Part shown: positions 1 through 11,337 of the stretch, one piece after another | Numbering within the stretch: the first letter of the stretch is position 1 | How the letters are laid out: each line of letters starts with the position of its first letter | Assembly (NCBI GenBank): GCA_046497275.1 | Contig: JAWOFX010000007.1 | Span: 83,098 to 115,097 of the forward strand | DNA from: Promethearchaeia archaeon | GTDB lineage: Archaea > Asgardarchaeota > Lokiarchaeia > Sigyniarchaeales > SOKP01 | Reading direction: 5' to 3' | DNA: 32,000 nt | The notes under the pieces: generated by a model | Database searches by the model: none | Told to the model about the DNA's origin: nothing | The model's input: only the letters and a program-made list of their open reading frames with translations | Made by a program: the position numbers and the translations under genes

Positions 1-2112
1 TTTAATTTTATCAGCCGAATATGGGTGTACGCCTAGAGCTTGAGTAGCATAACTCTTTTTAGGTTCAAGCAGAACCATATGTACATTTTGTCGGGACAAA
101 GTTTTTGTAATAGTCTTTAATTCTTCGACTATTAAGTTATAATCGCTCTCTAATTGTGCTATTAAATCTGGATGCTTCACAGAAATATTTGCTCCGCAAT
201 CAGAACAAATGAAGATCACTGGAATTATATTTCTATTTTTTAACTTTTCAATTTTTATTAATTCTTGACATTTCTTTAATCCAGCTGCCATTGGAGTATA
301 AGATTTACCCTCTAATTTTTTTAACTTTTGGATCGCATTTTGAAATGATACTGTTGGTTTTTGGAGGACAAGGGCATTTTTTCCCCTGAACACAATTAAA
401 CAAATTTTATCTTTTTTACGATAACCCTCTCTTTGCAGTGATAAAATTACATCAGTCATTTGTTTTATCACATAATACATAGAGGCAGAACTATCAAGAA
501 CAAAAAATAAACATAAGGGAGCACGATATTCATAGATCTTATCTTTTAAATCATATTTATTAAATTTTATGGGAAAATCAATCTCTGTTTTATTATAAAC
601 TGAATTTTTTAAGTAACTCCGTATAGTGGCATCTAATGCGATACTTTTGGGGTGTTGTCCAATAGGAGAGCGATATGAGACATATCTTCCTTTTTGAGAA
701 GATGCAACTTTTATTCTTCGACCAATTCCCCGCCCTCCATAATTAGAAATCTTTCGTTCATTTCGGATATTATCCAAAATAGATGTCATTTTTTTTTCCA
801 TTTTATAGATTAATGGAAATGGATCAAATCCATTACTAGTGAAATTAAAATCATTTTCTGAAGGAATTTCTTTAACTTTCCATCCTCCAGCAGGTTTTGG
901 ATTTCTTTTTCTTTCATCTTCATATTTCGGAGGTGGTAATTTTTGTTCTTTCGTCTCTGGTAGATCTACTTTATCAGGATCTATTGATTGCCGTTTAAAT
1001 TCTTCTTGTGGTTCGTCCGAATGTTTCAAGGGTCCTTCTGTTTCCCTATTAGGCTGATAAATATCAGGATCTTCATATGCCTCTCGAATCTTTCCATAGA
1101 CTTCTTTTATTTTAGTTTTGATTTCTTCAGGAGTTAATTCATAATGTAAGGATTTAATTCTATGTTCAAAAACTAAATCCATTGCAATATCAAGATCTTT
1201 TTCTATAAGATGATTCCTATTGCTAAATGCGGCATGAGCTCGAGCACAACGAATGAAGGTTATATCCGCCCTCTGTGAGAATATATCTAATTCATTAACA
1301 GTTCTCGCAACTAATTCATAAATAGTACTTGGTATCTTCACTTCTTTAATTATTTTCCTTGCTTTTAATAATTTTTCTCTTAATTCTTTTTGTTCCCCCT
1401 CATATTTTGCTATAAACTGCTTTGGATTATCATTAAATTCAATAACTCTTTTTGTAATTTCTGCACGTAAACTGGGATCACATGGCGCTTGAATTCTCAC
1501 CTCTAAACCTAATCTGTCAGCTATCTGTGGCCTTAATTCTCCTTCTTCTGGATTCATACTGCCTACTAGTACAAAACGCGAAGGATGCATTATTGAGATT
1601 CCTTCTCGTTCAATTATATTTACACCAGAAGCAGCAGCATCAAGTAAGGTATCTACGATATGATCTTGTAAAAGATTGATCTCATCGATATAAAGAATTC
1701 CTCTGTTTGCTTTTGCTAATAATCCAGGATGGAGTTCAGAAATGCCTTCCGTGAGCACCTTGTCAATTGAAAGCGAGCCAGTCACCATATCCTCTGTGAC
1801 TCCAAGCGGTAAATTGACTAAACGCATGTCACGCTTAATAACCTCAATCTGGCCATTCTTTTTCTTCTCTTGGCATTCAACACAAAGTTCATCCATCTCA
1901 GAATTTGGATCACATAAAAATGGACATCCTTTTACCACTTCGATTTGAGGCATCACTTCTACCAAAGACCTAACTGCTGTGGATTTACCCGTACCTTGAT
2001 GGCCAGAGAGAAGGACTCCACCTACTTGAGGGTCAATAACATTCAGAATTAATGCCATCTTCATTCTTTCTTGACCAAGTATTGCTGTGAAGGGAAAATT
2101 CAATTTCTTCAA
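1..2112 (-). CDS. Magnesium/cobalt chelatase ChlI/ChlD-family AAA+ ATPase with C-terminal VWA domain (runs off the left edge; stop not in window)
   Basis: Not in the ORF track; translated by hand at both ends and in part of the interior. TTG start at 2112, preceded by AGGTGA, gives LKKLNFPFTAILGQERMKMALILNVIDPQVGGVLLSGHQGTGKSTAVRSL (typical ChlI/BchI N-terminus with Walker A). There is a Pro-rich linker near 900-1050 and a VWA MIDAS motif LFFVLDSSASM near 480-510. The same frame is still open at position 1 (...ALGVHPYSADKIK). Confidence 0.88.
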   Translation of the reverse strand, partial: MKKLNFPFTAILGQERMKMALILNVIDPQVGGVLLSGHQGTGKSTAVRSLVEVMPQIEVVKGCPFLCDPNSEMDELCVECQEKKKNGQIEVIKRDMRLVNLPLGVTEDMVTGSLSIDKVLTEGISELHPGLLAKANRGILYIDEINLLQDHIVDTLLDAAASGVNIIEREGISIMHPSRFVLVGSMNPEEGELRPQIADRLGLEVRIQAPCDPSLRAEITKRVIEFNDNPKQFIAKYEGEQKELREKLLKARKIIKEVKIPSTIYELVARTVNELDIFSQRADITFIRCARAHAAFSNRNHLIEKDLDIAMDLVFEHRIKSLHYELTPEEIKTKIKEVYGKIREAYEDPDIYQPNRETEGPLKHSDEPQEEFKRQSIDPDKVDLPETKEQKLPPPKYEDERKRNPKPAGGWKVKEIPSENDFNFTSNGFDPFPLIYKMEKKMTSILDNIRNERKISNYGGRGIGRRIKVASSQKGRYVSYRSPIGQHPKSIALDATIRSYLKNSVYNKTEIDFPIKFNKYDLKDKIYEYRAPLCLFFVLDSSASMYYVIKQMTDVILSLQREGYRKKDKICLIVFRGKNALVLQKPTVSFQNAIQKLKKLEGKSYTPMAAGLKKCQELIKIEKLKNRNIIPVIFICSDCGANISVKHPDLIAQLESDYNLIVEELKTITKTLSRQNVHMVLLEPKKSYATQALGVHPYSADKIK

Positions 2113-2298
2113 TTTTTTCACCTATAGTTTCAAAATCTTAGATATTGAAACGAAAAATGAAATAAAAAGTTAATAATTCGAAACAAATTGGTATTAATAT
2201 CAAATAGTAAATATGAGTCATTAATAGAAAACCATAGTCAAAATCAAAACATCGTATTAGTTTAAAATTAAAAGATCAAAAACAATAAGAAAGAAAAA

Positions 2299-3425: not shown

Positions 3426-4589
3426 ATGAACAGATATAAATTAATCAATATAGCAAAAACGTATCTTAAATCCGTGTTTTATTCTCTTTTACCTAATAGA
3501 AATGTACCTCTATGGGCGCATTTATGGGTTACTCATCGATGTAATCTAAGATGTGAATATTGTTATGTCTCCCGTGAAAAGTATCCTGAGATGAATTCAA
3601 TGGAGCTTAAAAAAGCAATTAAGCATATTAAAGAAAAATTGCATTGCTCTTTTATCGCTTTAATGGGAGGTGAACCAACATTAAGGCAAGATTTACCTGA
3701 AATCATAAAATATATGACAGAATTAAACATTACTTCTTTTTTAACCACAAATGGGATATTACTAACTGAGGAAAAGATTTTTCGGTTATGCGAGGCAGAT
3801 ATTGATTTTTTAGAATTATCTCTCGATGGGATGAAAGAATCCCCAATTAGTCAAAAGACGGGTGATAAATTGATTGAAATCCTTGATGTATTAATTGATT
3901 ATACTAAAACTTATGATGTAGGACTTTCAATTAATATGGTTATTACAAAACAAAATTATAAAGAATTGTATGACTTGATTCGCTTAATATCAGGGGAACC
4001 CATTTCAATAACAACAGGTCTCTATATCCCTGATATCCTATCAAAAGACAATATTTATAGTGATCCATTCGCATTTAGCACCCATGAGGATTTAAAAAAC
4101 CTTGAAAGGTTTACTAACAACATTATCAAACTGAAGGAAAAAGGTGCTTTTTTAGCTATGGACAAAACATATTACCAGAAATGGGTTCCATTTATGAAAG
4201 AAATGTTAAAAAAGCCTAATCAAATACCAAAGCAATTATGGAATTGCAAAGCGGGAAAGAATTTTATAGAAATTGACTGTGATGGAAGGATTAGATATTG
4301 TTCTTATCTTAATGATTTAATTGATGAGAACTTTACAATATTTGATTTAGATTTGTCTTATTATAAGAAATTTGAATCGAAATTCCAAAAAATGTTGAAC
4401 TATTGCAATAGAAGATGTTTATCAAACTGTTTTTATCAAGTGAGTTTAATCAAAAATCATCCAGCTAGATTCGCCAATGATTTCGCATTTAAACATGCTA
4501 TGCCATTTATAGATGAACTGTTTGATAGAAAGAGAACCATTGAAAAAAACCTATTAAAAAAGAAATGGCGTCAAGAATTCCAATTATAG
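3426..4589 (+). CDS. Radical SAM protein with C-terminal SPASM/Twitch-like Cys motifs, substrate unknown
   Basis: CxxxCxxC (CNLRCEYC), GGEP and TTNG motifs; C-terminal CKAG...IDCDGRIRYC and CNRRCLSNC. Confidence 0.9.
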   Translation: MNRYKLINIAKTYLKSVFYSLLPNRNVPLWAHLWVTHRCNLRCEYCYVSREKYPEMNSMELKKAIKHIKEKLHCSFIALMGGEPTLRQDLPEIIKYMTELNITSFLTTNGILLTEEKIFRLCEADIDFLELSLDGMKESPISQKTGDKLIEILDVLIDYTKTYDVGLSINMVITKQNYKELYDLIRLISGEPISITTGLYIPDILSKDNIYSDPFAFSTHEDLKNLERFTNNIIKLKEKGAFLAMDKTYYQKWVPFMKEMLKKPNQIPKQLWNCKAGKNFIEIDCDGRIRYCSYLNDLIDENFTIFDLDLSYYKKFESKFQKMLNYCNRRCLSNCFYQVSLIKNHPARFANDFAFKHAMPFIDELFDRKRTIEKNLLKKKWRQEFQL

Positions 4590-4655
4590 CAATTCGAAAT
4601 CTAATGGAAAAAGGTATTTTCTTATTATAAGTTCAATACTTGAATTTCTTAAACT

Positions 4656-5606
4656 TTAGAATTTATTTGCTAATTCAGTGAATTTATTATCCAATTGGGC
4701 AACTTTTTCATCCCATTTAGAGAGAATTTCCTTAACTTTAGGAATGACTTTTCCTCGTTCCTTAAATTCTAGGTAATCCATAAATTCTTTAATATTTTCA
4801 ATATTAATATAGGTTTGAGCTACAAATCTTCTAATATCCTTCACTTGCTCTTCCAAAACTTCTTGAGTTCTGTGGCCTTCACCTTTTCTGATCAGAGTTT
4901 TCAAATATTCTTCGGTTCCCAATAATTTTGAGTTTAATTCATTTATCTTATCATTGACAAATTTTTCATATCGAATGTAAATATTTTTTCTTGGGAAGAA
5001 ATTTGTGATATCAATAATGAATTTTTGAATTTGCTTGACTAGTTGTTCTTCACTTTCATATCCTTCTATTTTATAATCAACTTCATGATATGAGGCTTCA
5101 ATACCTCGATTGACGTTGTCAAGACGGAAAATTTTAAACCCAGGATCGTTTTTCAATTGTTTAACTGGATTCCCTTTTTTTTCGGGAAGCTCTACCTGTC
5201 GGATAAGTCGAACTGGATTGAATACTAAAGAAATTGCTTTTGGATTATTTTGTTGATAAGAAAGTGTAGTTTTAACATCAAGTTGAGACATCATTACTTT
5301 AAATCCTGGATGACTATGCCACCATCCAATGGTAAAATTTCCTTCAGAGAAAGCTTTATCATCAATTAAACTAAATGATTCATAATCTTCTGTACTCCAA
5401 TATACTTTATCAATTATATCTTCTGGATTCTTTTCTTGATGGGTTATTGGATAAGCTTTGGAAACAATTACATCATCACCATCCACACTACCAATAAAAA
5501 TACCATATACTTCTAGCCAATCATCTTCCGGAACGCGAGTGTTTGCAAATCTAACAGCTGCGGCTACTATAGTTTGATATTCTTTTTTCGGTATAATTAC
5601 AGTCAT
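4656..5606 (-). CDS. JAB/MPN (JAMM, Rpn11/Mov34-like) metalloprotease with helical C-terminal region; catalytic motif intact
   Basis: Upstream Glu in EVYGIFIG; GWWHSHPGFKVMMSQLD matches H-x-H-x7-S-x2-D; followed by ~120 aa of charged helical sequence. Confidence 0.9.
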   Translation of the reverse strand: MTVIIPKKEYQTIVAAAVRFANTRVPEDDWLEVYGIFIGSVDGDDVIVSKAYPITHQEKNPEDIIDKVYWSTEDYESFSLIDDKAFSEGNFTIGWWHSHPGFKVMMSQLDVKTTLSYQQNNPKAISLVFNPVRLIRQVELPEKKGNPVKQLKNDPGFKIFRLDNVNRGIEASYHEVDYKIEGYESEEQLVKQIQKFIIDITNFFPRKNIYIRYEKFVNDKINELNSKLLGTEEYLKTLIRKGEGHRTQEVLEEQVKDIRRFVAQTYINIENIKEFMDYLEFKERGKVIPKVKEILSKWDEKVAQLDNKFTELANKF

Positions 5607-5814
5607 TTTTTAAATATTAAAGTATCTTTTCTTGACTTGGTTTATTGATACATAAAACTTCTTTTATTTAAAAATATGGAATTTCAAAATTAATTTTCAT
5701 TTTATGCGTATTTTAAGATAATTTAATATCTTTAGAATAATCGAATTTTTCTAACTGGTTCTATTTAGTTGAAAATGTAAGAAAATAAAAAAAACATTAA
5801 ATTTTATTTTTATT

Positions 5815-6498
5815 TTAGTAATCCTTTAGATTCAGTAGAAATGCTATAAGTAATATTATGCCTCCATAACCAAGAACGGGATAACCTGTGGCGTTTGGTG
5901 ATATCCACGTAAATACTACGAATCCAATAATAAGCAGAACCCACCAAGAAAAGTCTAAGATTTTCAGATCAACAAAGTCAAAAATTAGGATTATCAATAA
6001 AATTATTAATATTAAACCGAAAACAGCATTAACGATAAGAATTGGACTCGCAGACAAAAATAAGACAAAGCATTCATAAACTGTGAACCCCGCACCTACA
6101 AGCGCTACCATTTTAGAAGCTTTATAAGGTTTCTTTTGCATTACAAAATCGATTATTGCCGCCATTAATAATAAGATGCCAGGTAGATATTCGTATGCAA
6201 ATCCGGTTCCAGGATCAAAGAAATAGGCCATCAATATTAAAATAGCACCGAAAATAAGCATTATCCACCATTCAAAAGGTATTTTGACAGGTCCAAAATC
6301 TACTAATTCAAATGTTAGAAAAATTGCAAAAGCAATAGCTAATAAAATGATTCCCCAGAGAAATTGAAAGATTGGAAAGATAGGGGGATAAAAATAATCA
6401 ATAGCTAATGCACCAATGTATAGCATAGCGATAAATGCGAGTAATTTTGGAGCAGGTGATTCTCTTTTAACAGTTGTACTTGTACTTGTTTCAGTCAT
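5815..6498 (-). CDS. Uncharacterised integral membrane protein (~8 TM, two internal repeats)
   Basis: 227-aa hydrophobic ORF; both halves carry F[ED][LF]VD...F[ES]WW followed by similar helices. Confidence 0.8.
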   Translation of the reverse strand: MTETSTSTTVKRESPAPKLLAFIAMLYIGALAIDYFYPPIFPIFQFLWGIILLAIAFAIFLTFELVDFGPVKIPFEWWIMLIFGAILILMAYFFDPGTGFAYEYLPGILLLMAAIIDFVMQKKPYKASKMVALVGAGFTVYECFVLFLSASPILIVNAVFGLILIILLIILIFDFVDLKILDFSWWVLLIIGFVVFTWISPNATGYPVLGYGGIILLIAFLLNLKDY

Positions 6499-6857
6499 TT
6501 TTTTTTCACTTTTTTATTTTTTAATTGGAAATTTCTAAATTATAATTAAAGCTAAACTATGCTTATCGGTTTAAAAAATTTTACCCTCTTTTTATTATAT
6601 TATTAATAGTATTCAATGTTAAAATCTTATATATACTGATGCTTAGTAAAAAACTAAGAGGATCTCCAATTTCGGAAATCTTCCGTTTTGCTAATTGATA
6701 CTTTTTCATATTTTTCATTTGAAAATAAAAAACCCTAGTTATTTTCCAAAATAAAAATATAATATATTTAAAATCTTAAATTACTATAATAAAGATAATT
6801 CAATATAATATACAATAAATAATTTTTTAAGTTTATAGAGAAAGGTTATCAGAAAAA

Positions 6858-7481
6858 ATGACAGAAAAAGGATTTGAACCATTATCCTCGCAACTGGGTA
6901 TACCAGGCACCTCTTATCGGCTCCAATTAGGATTAATCAATGAAAAATGGGCATCGAGAATATTAAAAGGGAACAATATCATCGATTCATATGTCTATAA
7001 GGATGAAGATGTAGAAGGAGGATATCCTAACCAAAATCTTATTGTTGGATGGGTACTTAGGACAGTAGCTATTCCAAATATTAACCCTCATCAAGTAATG
7101 AAAACAACACAAGCATTAATGAAACAAGCAAGAGAAAATAAGGATAAACAGAAAGTGGTTGCACCTTTATCAGAAACAAAAGATGTTGAATTAGAAAAAG
7201 TACCTGAAGGTGAAATTAAACGTCCTAAAGCAAGTGGATGGGTTAAAGAAGAGGCACCACATGACACTAGTGAAGAACAAAAACGAAAGGCGTTTCAGGA
7301 GAGTGTGAAAGCTAAAAAGGAAGGTGAGACGATTCAATCCCAAAAAGGAAGACAATTACACTCCATACCTAGTGCAGATCAAGAAGAAAAAGCCGGAAAA
7401 GTTTTTTGCCCATTTTGTGGGGGTACTTTACCAGTTTTTGTGTATTGTCCCTACTGCGGTAAAAAGTTACCTCATGACTGA
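6858..7481 (+). CDS. Hypothetical protein: N-terminal globular domain, charged linker, C-terminal double zinc ribbon
   Basis: C-terminal CPFCG...YCPYCGKKL; low-complexity E/K/Q-rich middle; coding-like composition. Confidence 0.8.
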   Translation: MTEKGFEPLSSQLGIPGTSYRLQLGLINEKWASRILKGNNIIDSYVYKDEDVEGGYPNQNLIVGWVLRTVAIPNINPHQVMKTTQALMKQARENKDKQKVVAPLSETKDVELEKVPEGEIKRPKASGWVKEEAPHDTSEEQKRKAFQESVKAKKEGETIQSQKGRQLHSIPSADQEEKAGKVFCPFCGGTLPVFVYCPYCGKKLPHD

Positions 7482-7605
7482 ATTTTAGTTTTCTCTTAAT
7501 TATTTATTTAATTTACTTTTTTCAATATTTTTAGGAACAAATAATATTCCTAGAGAAAAATAAAAAAATTTCTAACGAAAATTAGATTATAGTTAATTAT
7601 CAGTC

Positions 7606-8351: not shown

Positions 8352-9935
8352 ATGGGAAGCCGTAAATCAGCTATGTCGGATGACTCTATTGTTGTAATTA
8401 AACCCGAAGCGTACTATAAAATGTTAGTTCATATTTTGAGATTTGGGGCAAAAACAATCCAGGGACGTGGTTATAAAGAAGTAATGGGAATACTAATTGG
8501 TCGTTTAGAGGGAGACGGGACGAGAAAAAATGTAATAGTAGAGGATGCAGTGCCTATTTCTCATGGAGGGTCAATTGAAGTAAGATTTGCTCCCGAAGAT
8601 TATGTTAGCTTCTCTATGATTGACGAGAGATTTGCTAAGGAGAATTTATTTAGCGTTGGCTGGTATCATTCCCATCCTGCTCTCGATATCTTTTTTTCAG
8701 GTACAGATATTATGAATCAATTAGGATGGCAAACAGCTAATCCTAGTGCTATCGGAATTGTGTTCGATCATACCTATTTGGAAAAACCTGGAGATTTAGG
8801 TTTTCGAACTTTTAGATTAGATGATCCTTCTAAAGGAGAGTCTTCAGGTTATCATGAAGTCAAAACAAAGGTTGAAGAGCCTGATAGCTTAGAATTTTAT
8901 AATAGAATTATAGATTTAATTTCAAGTATTAATACTGGAGAGCCTCCTATTCTCGAGATAAATGAAACCACTGATATTTTGGGGGAGATATCCTTTCCCT
9001 CTGATGGTGAATTGATGGTTAAAAAGCCAGAAAAAAGTACAAATAAGATTTTAGACAATTTGAAAATTGGTCTGTTTAATATTTTGGAGGCAATATTAGA
9101 ACCGATCTTGAACCGATATAATGAGTGGGGTCAAAATCTTTTAATAACGGTTATGAATCAAAATCTTTCTTTAAAAGATAATTTAATCAATGTTAAAGAT
9201 ATCCTTAAAAATCAATTTAAAGATATCCAAAAGGATTTTAAAACCAACCTTAATGACTTTTTTAATGATTTGGAATTTTTCATTGACGATAAATTAGACA
9301 TTTTAGATAAAAAAGTCGAGGAAATTAATAATACCTTAACAAATTTAGAAGAAGATTTATCAAATCAGATAAACCGCACGATAACGGAAATAAAAGAGAA
9401 AAATATTCATAACATTGATGAAATTTATCAAAAAGGAATCAGTAATTTTGCCGAAATGAGAGAAAATAGTGAAATGAATGAGGATTTAATAAGCAAGCAA
9501 AAAACTTTATTAAATACTTTAATTGAACAGCAAAATACTATTCAAGAAGAAATTGAGGTGGAAATTTCTACACATTTAGCCAAAAAATCTGAAGAATTTG
9601 AGAAAAAATATCAAATAATTAATAAAATTATTGATAAATCTGAAAAAAGGGCTGAATCCCTACAATCTAAGTTCATGGATTCATTATCAATATTAGAAAG
9701 CTCAGTAGACCCATTAAAAGATAAAATAGAAGGATTAAATACTGATAAAAAAGTACTCCAAAATAAAATAGATAAAGCTCATTCAAAAATTAATGATTAT
9801 GAGAAACAGATTAATAATTTAGAAAAGGATAATGAAAAGTTAAAGGAAGATCTTAGTAAATTTAAAGAGGAAAATCAAGATCTCTCAAAAAAAATTAAAA
9901 AATTAGAGAAAAAGGTGGAAAATACCAATGGATAG
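8352..9935 (+). CDS. JAB/MPN (JAMM) metalloprotease, catalytically intact (MPN+), fused to a ~300-aa coiled coil
   Basis: KEVMGILIG Glu; GWYHSHPALDIFFSGTD matches H-x-H-x7-S-x2-D; heptad-rich C-terminus (e.g. LQNKIDKAHSKINDYEKQINNLEKDNEKLKEDL). The real start may be the second Met (MSDD). Confidence 0.9.
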   Translation: MGSRKSAMSDDSIVVIKPEAYYKMLVHILRFGAKTIQGRGYKEVMGILIGRLEGDGTRKNVIVEDAVPISHGGSIEVRFAPEDYVSFSMIDERFAKENLFSVGWYHSHPALDIFFSGTDIMNQLGWQTANPSAIGIVFDHTYLEKPGDLGFRTFRLDDPSKGESSGYHEVKTKVEEPDSLEFYNRIIDLISSINTGEPPILEINETTDILGEISFPSDGELMVKKPEKSTNKILDNLKIGLFNILEAILEPILNRYNEWGQNLLITVMNQNLSLKDNLINVKDILKNQFKDIQKDFKTNLNDFFNDLEFFIDDKLDILDKKVEEINNTLTNLEEDLSNQINRTITEIKEKNIHNIDEIYQKGISNFAEMRENSEMNEDLISKQKTLLNTLIEQQNTIQEEIEVEISTHLAKKSEEFEKKYQIINKIIDKSEKRAESLQSKFMDSLSILESSVDPLKDKIEGLNTDKKVLQNKIDKAHSKINDYEKQINNLEKDNEKLKEDLSKFKEENQDLSKKIKKLEKKVENTNG

Positions 9936-11271
9936 TGAAGAGAAAAATGATATATCAGTAATTATTAAAAAAGAAGCATTTAGAAATATTTTAGCGCATA
10001 TTTTACGATTTAGTCATGAATCTTTAGAGGAAAGCTTGGAAACTAGGGGATATTGTTTAGGAAATATTGAGAATCAAAAAAAAATCATAATAAAAAACGC
10101 TATCCCTGTCTCTCATGGTAATCAAATTAATGCACTTTTTTCCCAAGATCATTTAGATATAATAAAGAAGATTGAGGAAAAATATCAAACACAAAATTTA
10201 GATTTAATTGGATGGTATATTTCTCACCCTTCAAATGGATTTAATTGGGTAGAAAATGATATTCAACATCATTTAAAAATACAAAATGAAAATAGACCTA
10301 ATGCATTTTGTATGATTTTCGATCCTACTCATCTTAGAGAAGATGACGAGTTTAAACTTAAAATTTATAGCTTGAAAGATTACAAAGATGGAACAGAGGG
10401 TAAAAAATTGAATTTAATCTATAAAATTGAAAAACCAAGCAGTCTAGATTATTTTAAATGGGTCCAAAAGTTTGTTGAGGATTACCATAAAAGTAATCCT
10501 ATATTAATAAAAGAAATTGAAGAAGTTTTGGAAAAAAAACCTGAGACATTACAAGAAATTCCTCTGAATGAAATTCAGGAATCAGAGAAAGATATGCTTA
10601 AAATCTCTTCAGAATACATAAAAAGAAACGATGAATTTGTTGATATGTTGAATAATTTATTTCAAACCGAAATCAATCAATGGATGGAAGAGATCAATCA
10701 AGGTGCTATTCTCGGCAATGAGAAGTTACTAACCAGTACAATTAAGATGAAGAAAAATCTTTCTCAGGGTATGAAAAGACTGAAGAATTGGTTTGAAAAT
10801 CTACTAACTGAACAATCTGGTGGATTTAAAAAGATTGTACAGAATTATATTGAAAATCGCATTAAAGAAATTATAAATTTGGAAAGTAGAATTTCTGAAC
10901 AATCCCAGTCGATAATAAATAATTCCAATGAAACTATCAAGGATAAAACTGAAACATATAGTAACCAAGTCAAAGAGAAGATTGAGGGATTAAAAACATT
11001 ATCAGAGGAAGTCTCATCTTTTATCTCCAGTAATTTAAATGAGGCACAATCGGTTTTTGATACAAATCAAAAATTAAAGAATGACATCAAAGAATTCTCA
11101 GAAAAAATAATTCAAAAATCAAAATCACAATTCGACGATATCATTGATCAAGAGATAAATAGAATGGATAAAATAATAGAAATTAATAGAGATATAAATC
11201 ACAGATATAATGATATTGAAGAAAATGTAAAGAAATTAGAAAAAGCAATTCTAAATCTTAGGAATTTATAA
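9928..11271 (+). CDS. JAB/MPN-domain protein with degenerate JAMM motif (MPN-, predicted inactive) fused to a long coiled coil
   Basis: Aligns to the upstream paralog (ETRGYCLG; KNAIPVSHG; AFCMIFDP), but the motif reads GWYISHPSNGFNWVEND, with the first His replaced by Ile and Ser by Val. The start overlaps the upstream gene by 8 bp and has GGTGG upstream. Confidence 0.85.
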   Translation: MDSEEKNDISVIIKKEAFRNILAHILRFSHESLEESLETRGYCLGNIENQKKIIIKNAIPVSHGNQINALFSQDHLDIIKKIEEKYQTQNLDLIGWYISHPSNGFNWVENDIQHHLKIQNENRPNAFCMIFDPTHLREDDEFKLKIYSLKDYKDGTEGKKLNLIYKIEKPSSLDYFKWVQKFVEDYHKSNPILIKEIEEVLEKKPETLQEIPLNEIQESEKDMLKISSEYIKRNDEFVDMLNNLFQTEINQWMEEINQGAILGNEKLLTSTIKMKKNLSQGMKRLKNWFENLLTEQSGGFKKIVQNYIENRIKEIINLESRISEQSQSIINNSNETIKDKTETYSNQVKEKIEGLKTLSEEVSSFISSNLNEAQSVFDTNQKLKNDIKEFSEKIIQKSKSQFDDIIDQEINRMDKIIEINRDINHRYNDIEENVKKLEKAILNLRNL

Positions 11272-11337
11272 TAATCCTTTTTTTATTTAAAGTAAAAAGA
11301 TTAGGGAATCAAATATATTTATTGAACTGATATCGCA

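Follow-up and report, generated by a model that had tools for sequence, protein, structure and literature searches.

Overlapping MPN-domain genes of Lokiarchaeia, one with a degenerate JAMM site, as a candidate heteromeric isopeptidase with long coiled-coil tails

The stretch of DNA analysed here (the window) comprises 32,000 nucleotides of a Promethearchaeia archaeon (contig JAWOFX010000007.1, positions 83,098 to 115,097 of the forward strand), and all positions given below are counted within it. The host genome measures 3.85 Mb at a completeness of 98.9%, the guanine-plus-cytosine content of the window is approximately 29%, and the nearest relatives of the proteins it encodes carry the source names Lokiarchaeota or Promethearchaeota. 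Our subject is a pair of overlapping genes, here called A and B, whose products each join an MPN domain to a very long helical tail. An initial annotation, made from the letters of the sequence, had described A as a protein with a complete JAMM active site (MPN+) and B as a paralog that has lost it (MPN-), and had proposed that the two form an obligate heterodimer on a coiled-coil scaffold. Comparative analysis indicates that the pair is old within Lokiarchaeia and that B has lost its active site repeatedly, and we lean toward the view that the two proteins act together as a heteromeric isopeptidase.

Two overlapping MPN genes with conserved linkers and long tails

Gene A (8352..9935, + strand) encodes an MPN+ (JAMM) protein of 527 amino acids, and gene B (9928..11271, + strand) encodes an MPN paralog of 447 amino acids with a degenerate JAMM site; both reading frames are open, and both products match the Pfam JAB family and carry long helical tails. 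At the junction (9914..9935, +), the ATG start codon of B (9928-9930) precedes the TAG stop codon of A (9933-9935), giving an overlap of 8 bp (A-ATG-GAT-AG), and GGTGG, a Shine-Dalgarno-like word at 9914-9918, lies 9 nt upstream of the B start. The overlap already described for these genes was thus read directly, and their tight coupling is borne out both by this arrangement and by close junctions in related loci. Orthologs of A start approximately 5 to 6 residues ahead of a conserved VIIKP sequence, and the true start of A may be its second ATG (M8, 8373). An oligo-T run (T7-A-T3; 11278..11288, +), likewise read directly, lies 7 nt past the B stop codon. Oligo-T is an archaeal transcription termination signal, and this run is likely the end of an A-B transcript. 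Two studies of salt-lake samples produced metatranscriptome libraries whose contigs, at 99% identity or more, cover A, B and the genes around them.

The MPN domain of A (8391..8876, +; residues 14-175) matches Pfam JAB (PF01398) over residues 14-130 with an E value of 1.9e-12 and 47.5 bits against a cut-off of 22.5, and it contains the complete E...HxHx7Sx2D motif in the form of E43 (8478-8480) and H106-S-H108-x7-S116-x2-D119 (8667-8708). The complete site first noted in the letters is invariant at all five positions (E/H/H/S/D) in 120 of 120 orthologs. Judged by this motif, A is probably a zinc isopeptidase and would be the catalytic subunit of the pair. The window's B lacks the complete motif. 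Its MPN domain (9955..10428, +; residues 10-167) matches JAB over residues 10-121 (E value 8.2e-10, 39 bits, exceeding the curated cut-off), and at the degenerate motif (10219-10260) the protein keeps E38 together with I98-S-H100-x7-V108-x2-D111, such that the first zinc histidine has become isoleucine and the serine valine. Loss of these two residues from a protein that retains the landmarks of the fold is what the initial annotation had reported. A and B are 25% identical across 494 aligned residues (E value 3e-27), and their paralogy spans the whole length of the proteins.

AlphaFold2 monomer models, built on 66 orthologs for A (predicted local distance difference test, pLDDT, 73) and on 69 orthologs for B (pLDDT 78), share a common plan in which the MPN domain (residues 1-175 in A; residues 1-167 in B, at a pLDDT of approximately 85-93) is followed by a short helix, a conserved linker of 35-40 residues, a further helix, a break and a very long helix. 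The linker, marked by EPPILEINE in A and NPILIKEIEE in B, is disordered in the monomer models even though it is strongly conserved. In A, the post-MPN helix (residues 180-194) and the linker (residues 194-228, pLDDT below 50) occupy 8880..9035 (+), and P177, Y183, I190, E202, N204 and E205 are invariant in this region among the 66 orthologs. The corresponding segment of B (10429..10605, +; residues 168-226) is the most constrained part of that protein, holding nine of the 19 columns that are invariant among the 69 orthologs at 27-83% identity (P170, W178, E184, D185, I194, E196, L208, I211 and P212). The post-MPN linker that had been recognized as common to both genes is therefore real, and it belongs to the best conserved parts of both families.

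The helical tails measure approximately 298 amino acids in A and 223 in B. That of A (9039..9932, +; residues 230-527) consists of a helix (230-310), a conserved break (310-317) and a single helix (317-525), and that of B (10609..11268, +) of a helix (228-277), a break (277-281) and a second helix (282-446), with hendecads followed by heptads. The first tail helix is thus 50-80 residues long, the break falls at an aligned position in the two proteins, and the final helix runs unbroken for 209 residues (A) or 165 (B). Fourier analysis of the frequency of hydrophobic residues in the ortholog alignments puts the dominant period at 3.64 for A and B alike. The proximal 130 residues or so have a period of 3.64-3.72, as in a hendecad (11/3) with a narrow a/d-e/h seam, and clean a/d heptads occur only distally (approximately 362-405 and 426-527 in A; 337-392 and 401-444 in B). 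The hydrophobic seam takes up approximately 3 of 11 positions at 3-4-4 spacing, core hydrophobic residues amount to 32%, and there are two prolines in the tail of A and none in that of B. Shifts from hendecads to heptads occur in the two proteins at only roughly matching places (in windows of 44-56 residues), so that periodicity does not fix an exact register between the tails.

Canonical heptads along the whole tail were considered and rejected on account of the proximal periodicity. The initial annotation, which spoke of some 250-300 heptad-rich amino acids, was right about long tails of coiled-coil type, but they are mostly hendecad. This periodicity explains the sub-threshold matches of the tails to Pfam families such as Apolipoprotein A1/A4/E (8e-7), Baculo_PEP_C, YtxH and DUF948. 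An NCBIfam scan returned coiled-coil noise (SMC, Rad50) and a desampylase match under the threshold and nothing else, and an Atlas search with the A tail alone gave no usable match.

Duplication, repeated site loss and kinship with known MPN proteins

Homologs of A number 279 in metagenome-assembled genomes of Lokiarchaeia or Promethearchaeota; they are typically 42-48% identical (up to 62%) and nearly full length, tail included. The 102 homologs of B are typically 30-37% identical. Despite its faster evolution relative to A, B remains full length throughout the family. In the head of the proteins, identity to orthologs is 61-80% for A (MPN domain plus linker, residues 1-230) and 36-84% for B (residues 1-215/225). 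We surveyed linkage in 301 sampled genomes of the phylum. All 68 that belong to the window's family have a full-length B ortholog, except that the one in G156 contains a stop, and in approximately 60 of the 68 an A-type match lies directly upstream of B on the same contig and strand. Of the 22 loci read, 21 have a distance between -19 and +15 bp from the A stop to the B start; in the remaining one (G141) the genes are approximately 6 kb apart. Synteny, proposed earlier as a check, is thus conserved across the family.

Close adjacency of A and B persists down to approximately 30% identity of B and into the sister family. One genome of the latter (G162) has a more divergent overlapping A-B pair, in which the B-like protein lacks both histidines, the serine and the aspartate, and the glutamate column is aligned to a non-acidic residue. 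The MPN content of a closed 4.4-Mb genome of the sister family is a single protein of approximately 328 amino acids. No pair was found in five genomes, complete or nearly so, that represent five other Asgard families; each has one to four short MPN genes (open frames of 143-353 amino acids), none of them adjacent. On this distribution the pair is old within Lokiarchaeia and confined to them, which agrees with the Asgard origin assigned to it previously and narrows it, among the Asgard genomes surveyed, to one class.

The full JAMM motif is retained in 27 of 103 B orthologs and missing from the other 76, with motif columns that vary as H/I/S/N/L, H/R/N, S/T/K and D/A/T/E/G. Degenerate sites fall into classes (ESHSA, ENHSA, ELHSG, EIRTT and the x-I-H-x-D group of the window) that occupy separate clades on the tree. 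There are at least three state changes by which B has lost its site, in different ways, and this count is conservative if anything because the tree retained the motif columns. The His-to-Ile state is common to a clade of approximately 15 B orthologs at 40-83% identity and, on that evidence, is a stable clade character of the window's lineage. Together with the conserved adjacency, this clade indicates that the pair is not a recent decaying duplicate, an outcome that the initial annotation had named as fatal to its own proposal.

All A proteins form one clade apart from B (SH-aLRT, the Shimodaira-Hasegawa-like approximate likelihood ratio test, 98), which places the duplication before the radiation of the family. 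On this tree the pair began as MPN+/MPN+ and turned MPN+/MPN- repeatedly. The idea that a gene was duplicated in tandem and that one of the copies then lost its catalytic site therefore stands, supported by the full-length paralogy, the separation of the A clade from B and the repeated loss of the B site. The designation MPN+/MPN- holds for the window genome and for the 76 degenerate B orthologs, but it is neither ancestral nor universal, and with the other 27 B orthologs both members of the pair retain the motif. A fast-evolving protein that nevertheless stays full length and keeps its linker fits a subunit retained for what it binds rather than for what it cleaves.

We placed A and B relative to eukaryotic MPN proteins by ranking their similarity to PDB sequences. 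For both, the search order begins with the archaeal CsRpn11 (6fjv) and continues with Rpn11, CSN5, BRCC36 and AMSH. The profile of A matches CsRpn11 at 3e-14, Rpn11 at 2e-11, CSN5 at 7e-11 and BRCC36 at 1e-10; that of B matches CsRpn11 at 6e-11, CSN5 and Rpn11 at approximately 1e-10, and Rpn8 at only 3e-4. With Foldseek, the MPN domain of A finds Rpn11 in Rpn8-Rpn11 crystals (E value 5e-9, template modelling score 0.62-0.71 depending on the target), and also BRCC36 and CSN5. Orthology of B to Rpn8, CSN6 or Abraxas was ruled out because B is a full-length paralog of A and matches Rpn8 so much more poorly than MPN+ proteins (approximately 1e-10). Common descent of B with Rpn8, CSN6, eIF3f or Abraxas is contradicted by the profile ranking, by the paralogy with A and by the distribution of the pair in one class. 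B groups with A and not with the eukaryotic MPN- subunits, which points to an independent origin. By these comparisons, B is a lineage-specific duplicate of an Rpn11/CSN5-like MPN+ gene, and the pair resembles Rpn11-Rpn8 or BRCC36-Abraxas in its design and not through descent. Whether the pair is a parallel or a relative of the eukaryotic deubiquitinase design had been left open; the parallel stands and the relative does not.

Active/inactive MPN pairs are typical of eukaryotic ubiquitin machines, namely the proteasome lid, the COP9 signalosome (CSN) and the BRISC and BRCA1-A complexes. The nearest domain plan is that of BRCC36-Abraxas and BRCC36-ABRO1 (KIAA0157), the cores of BRCA1-A and BRISC, which likewise combine an MPN+ enzyme with an MPN- paralog-like scaffold, and BRCC36 is among the top sequence and fold matches of A. 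However, the tails of A and B are 220-300 residues long and mostly hendecad, whereas the whole of BRCC36 has 316 amino acids. Unlike Abraxas, B is a recent paralog of its partner, arisen within Lokiarchaeia, and a quarter of its orthologs have a full site. No UEV (BRE) subunit was seen with the pair, as would be found in BRCA1-A or BRISC, and the nearby VWA domain belongs to an AAA+-VWA gene 6 kb off. Rpn11-Rpn8 and CSN5-CSN6 share with A-B the active/inactive MPN pair and C-terminal assembly helices, and Rpn11 and CSN5 are its closest eukaryotic sequences and folds, but the C-terminal helices of A and B are longer by an order of magnitude, and no PCI-domain genes accompany the locus. A search for scaffold proteins of the proteasome lid, CSN and eIF3 type found no PCI match among the proteins of the window.

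The best PDB match of both proteins, CsRpn11 of Caldiarchaeum subterraneum (6fjv/6fju), is an archaeal Rpn11-like JAMM protein with helices C-terminal to its core. It is a stand-alone protein of approximately 200 amino acids encoded beside a ubiquitin-E1-E2-E3 operon, whereas A and B have 447-527 amino acids, are paired and lie away from ubiquitin genes; no such operon-type arrangement with ubiquitin, E1, E2 and RING-E3 genes encloses A and B in the 32-kb window. The 2018 structural study of archaeal Rpn11 stated that the active/inactive MPN organization was not known in archaea, and reported that Asgard JAMM proteins cluster nearest to Rpn11 and accompany complete ubiquitin systems (PMC6043591). 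The literature on Asgard ubiquitin and ESCRT systems and on archaeal JAMM proteins, as far as our limited coverage reached, contains no description of the A-B pair. Judged by sequence comparison, A-B is an independently evolved variant of the known MPN+/MPN- design.

Conserved neighbours and other MPN genes

Convergent with B lies a gene for a 94-amino-acid winged-helix-like protein (P0225; 11338..11622, - strand), which invariably follows B directly in 21 loci of the family, at 62-79% identity, and is far better conserved than A (approximately 43%) or B (approximately 33%). Atlas leads to winged-helix families only (scores of approximately 0.86), its clusters hold Promethearchaeota only, and the protein has no Pfam family. 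Divergent from this gene is that of a 787-amino-acid polytopic membrane protein with a soluble C-terminal half (P0224; 11911..14274, +), which occupies the same position in 17 other loci at 41-60% identity and for which no Pfam or PDB sequence match was found, also when the soluble half was searched. The two genes share an AT-rich divergent intergenic region of approximately 290 bp. In the sister-family genome G162, neither gene adjoins the pair. From their positions, a link of both neighbours to A-B is possible. A scan of the window for tRNA genes returned none.

A third MPN gene (4656..5606, - strand) lies 2.7 kb upstream of the pair and encodes a protein of Rpn11-like length (316 amino acids) with an intact E...HSHx7Sx2D site and a helical C-terminus of approximately 130 amino acids; the host genome has five MPN paralogs in total. 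Orthologs of this third protein (approximately 321-328 amino acids) are encoded near the pair in one other locus (L002) and head the MPN matches in two sister-family genomes that showed no A/B-type match. VWA subunits such as Rpn10 and MERIT40 accompany eukaryotic MPN complexes. An AAA+ (Mg-chelatase/MoxR-like) and VWA protein is encoded near the 316-amino-acid MPN protein in two genomes (window 1-2121, - strand; L002 3648-5852). A radical-SAM gene and a zinc-ribbon protein adjoin an MPN gene twice in the host genome, beside the 316-amino-acid protein in the window (3426-7481) and at 3803-7166 of locus L035 on contig C185, where the MPN protein has 548 amino acids and a TPR/SNAP-like tail; the trio is thus a recurring one. 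In each of the four RNA libraries, contigs over a 227-amino-acid membrane protein and a 207-amino-acid zinc-ribbon protein (5836-7505) have approximately ten times the word depth of the A and B contigs, a measure that is unsuited to ranking genes.

Elsewhere in the genome, three Pfam matches of PCI-like (winged-helix) type, with 6.7e-10 for the best, fall on a 793-amino-acid frame (C127:2158-3012, - strand); by tblastn this frame is not a paralog of the 787-amino-acid window protein. Many metagenomic proteins of 480-755 amino acids (P0288, P0293, P0298, P0305-P0307 and P0312) carry an A-like MPN domain in a central or C-terminal position, for example at residues 250-420, which suggests that multidomain MPN architectures have radiated more widely.

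A candidate heteromeric isopeptidase and its rivals

Taken together, we consider it slightly more likely than not, and likelier than any other account, that A and B form a co-translated heteromer in which A serves as zinc isopeptidase for a ubiquitin-type modifier and B as its structural or regulatory partner, the two being joined by a long coiled-coil rod. A single bicistronic, translationally coupled transcript would yield both proteins, which would assemble into a heteromer, probably either one A-B heterodimer or two such dimers together. Its head would comprise both MPN domains with the conserved post-MPN linkers, and its rod, some tens of nanometres long, would be a coiled coil formed by pairing of the homologous helical tails. 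A would then remove a ubiquitin-like modifier from protein targets, and B, whose own catalytic site would be dispensable, would serve in structure or regulation. The structure of the two genes, their paralogy, the pattern of conservation, the fold and the occurrence of both genes in RNA libraries are established by the analysis, whereas the physical pairing, the isopeptidase activity, the type of substrate and the use of the rod as a spacer or tether are features that we infer.

Beside the genomic evidence, the pairing draws modest support from a complex prediction for full-length A and B on both alignments, which gave an ipSAE (interaction score from predicted aligned errors) of 0.56 (runs at 0.54, 0.56 and 0.58), graded as weak support, with the best of three controls at 0.00. 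At least 85% of contacts were common to the runs, and the pLDDT of the partner was at least 69. Of 80 solved complexes, 58 attain the mark reached in this prediction, as do 2 of 110 mismatched pairs; at values of 0.60 or less, only 7 of the 80 and both mismatches do. Since solved MPN heterodimers exist, part of the 0.56 may reflect likeness to known structures. The obligate heterodimer proposed at the outset gains from the similar domain plans, the adjacency and this prediction, and is weakened to a candidate by the grade of the score and by the missing interface.

Several observations weigh against the heteromeric isopeptidase. The weak-grade prediction is the sole interaction test and gave contacts without a returned interface, and it covered A with B only, so that pairing of A with A or of B with B is also compatible with it. 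Because 27 of 103 B orthologs look catalytically competent, a general description of B as a scaffold only is untenable. Two contigs from the RNA libraries bridge the A/B junction (X5, 9839-10225; X9, 9842-10136), but such contigs can contain DNA and are no proof of a single transcript. Finally, the 32-kb window holds no gene for ubiquitin, a ubiquitin-like protein, E1, E2 or E3. The genome does encode ubiquitin, E2 and E1-like proteins, scattered outside the window, and the ubiquitin gene (on contig C168) is flanked by a DNA ligase gene and by one for a protein without known identity, with no MPN neighbour. With no ubiquitin-system gene at the locus and no MPN gene beside that for ubiquitin, the substrate is a guess.

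Some of these same observations would suit A and B as independent enzymes or homo-oligomers, brought side by side by tandem duplication and co-regulation, each with its own homodimeric coiled coil and with B drifting toward a non-catalytic state. We regard this as unlikely, even though intact motifs in a quarter of B orthologs are what a past or present enzyme would have, the genes are separated in G141, the A+B score is of weak grade and the archaeal CsRpn11 was crystallized as a homodimer (PMC6043591). Overlapping or 0-15 bp junctions that persist to low B identity and into the sister family are unusual for paralogs that are merely co-regulated, B copies with dead sites stay full length with a strongly conserved linker, and the prediction controls scored 0.00. 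Decay of B into a pseudogene, as a recent duplicate without function, deserves practically no credence: the window's B has indeed lost its first zinc histidine and its serine and evolves faster than A, but this candidate is ruled out by conservation across the family, including a full-length, open B in 68 of 68 genomes bar the stop-containing one, the shared isoleucine clade, the 19 invariant columns at 27-83% identity and the RNA-library contigs that cover the gene.

Two further alternatives concern the tails and the substrate. The tails might instead resemble those of apolipoproteins or perilipins, with amphipathic 11-mer helices resting on a membrane or lipid surface, which would make the pair a membrane-surface isopeptidase, possibly working with the 787-amino-acid neighbour; this would be compatible with a heterodimer, and we think it improbable. 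A proximal period near 11/3 instead of 3.5, the sub-threshold Pfam matches listed above and the presence of the membrane protein beside the pair across the family all suit such helices. The narrow seam, the 32% of core hydrophobics, the scarcity of prolines and the distal a/d heptads typical of coiled coils favour a rod over a lipid-lying helix, and in the sister-family genome the 787-amino-acid protein is not beside the pair. A shade less probable still is a substrate other than a ubiquitin-type conjugate, such as a SAMP/Urm1/ThiS-like adduct, a peptide or a precursor, in which case the eukaryote-like design would be coincidental. The locus itself, devoid of ubiquitin-system genes, would allow this, as would a weak NCBIfam match to haloarchaeal desampylase (5.5e-5; 23 bits, where the cut-off is 130) and a ThiS-like open reading frame (a weak match) 2 kb upstream in one orthologous locus only. 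Against it, Rpn11, CSN5 and BRCC36-type enzymes rank first by sequence and fold, Asgard JAMM proteins sit nearest to Rpn11 alongside complete ubiquitin systems (PMC6043591), and the host genome has ubiquitin and E2.

The heteromeric isopeptidase can be extended to a bolder and decidedly tentative proposal, in which Lokiarchaeia would have independently evolved a pseudoenzyme-assisted deubiquitinase. An always-active MPN+ protein would need its repeatedly dead paralog, and both would be carried on a rod tens of nanometres long that serves as a spacer or tether, for example from a membrane protein to targets. If true, this would amount to a prokaryotic replay of the logic of Rpn11-Rpn8 and BRCC36-Abraxas, and the family would offer a 'before and after' series of the birth of a pseudoenzyme.

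Since the family holds B proteins with intact and with destroyed sites, it is a rare natural system in which to ask why MPN enzymes so readily take on a catalytically dead twin, and whether that partner serves to activate them. With many orthologs at hand and the genes present in RNA libraries, the proteins look amenable to expression and structural study. The tails of hendecads and heptads are unlike those of any characterized JAMM enzyme and suggest a role in positioning or scaffolding in Asgard cells. In the closest archaeal relatives of eukaryotes, the logic of an active and a dead MPN protein thus appears by way of an independent duplication.

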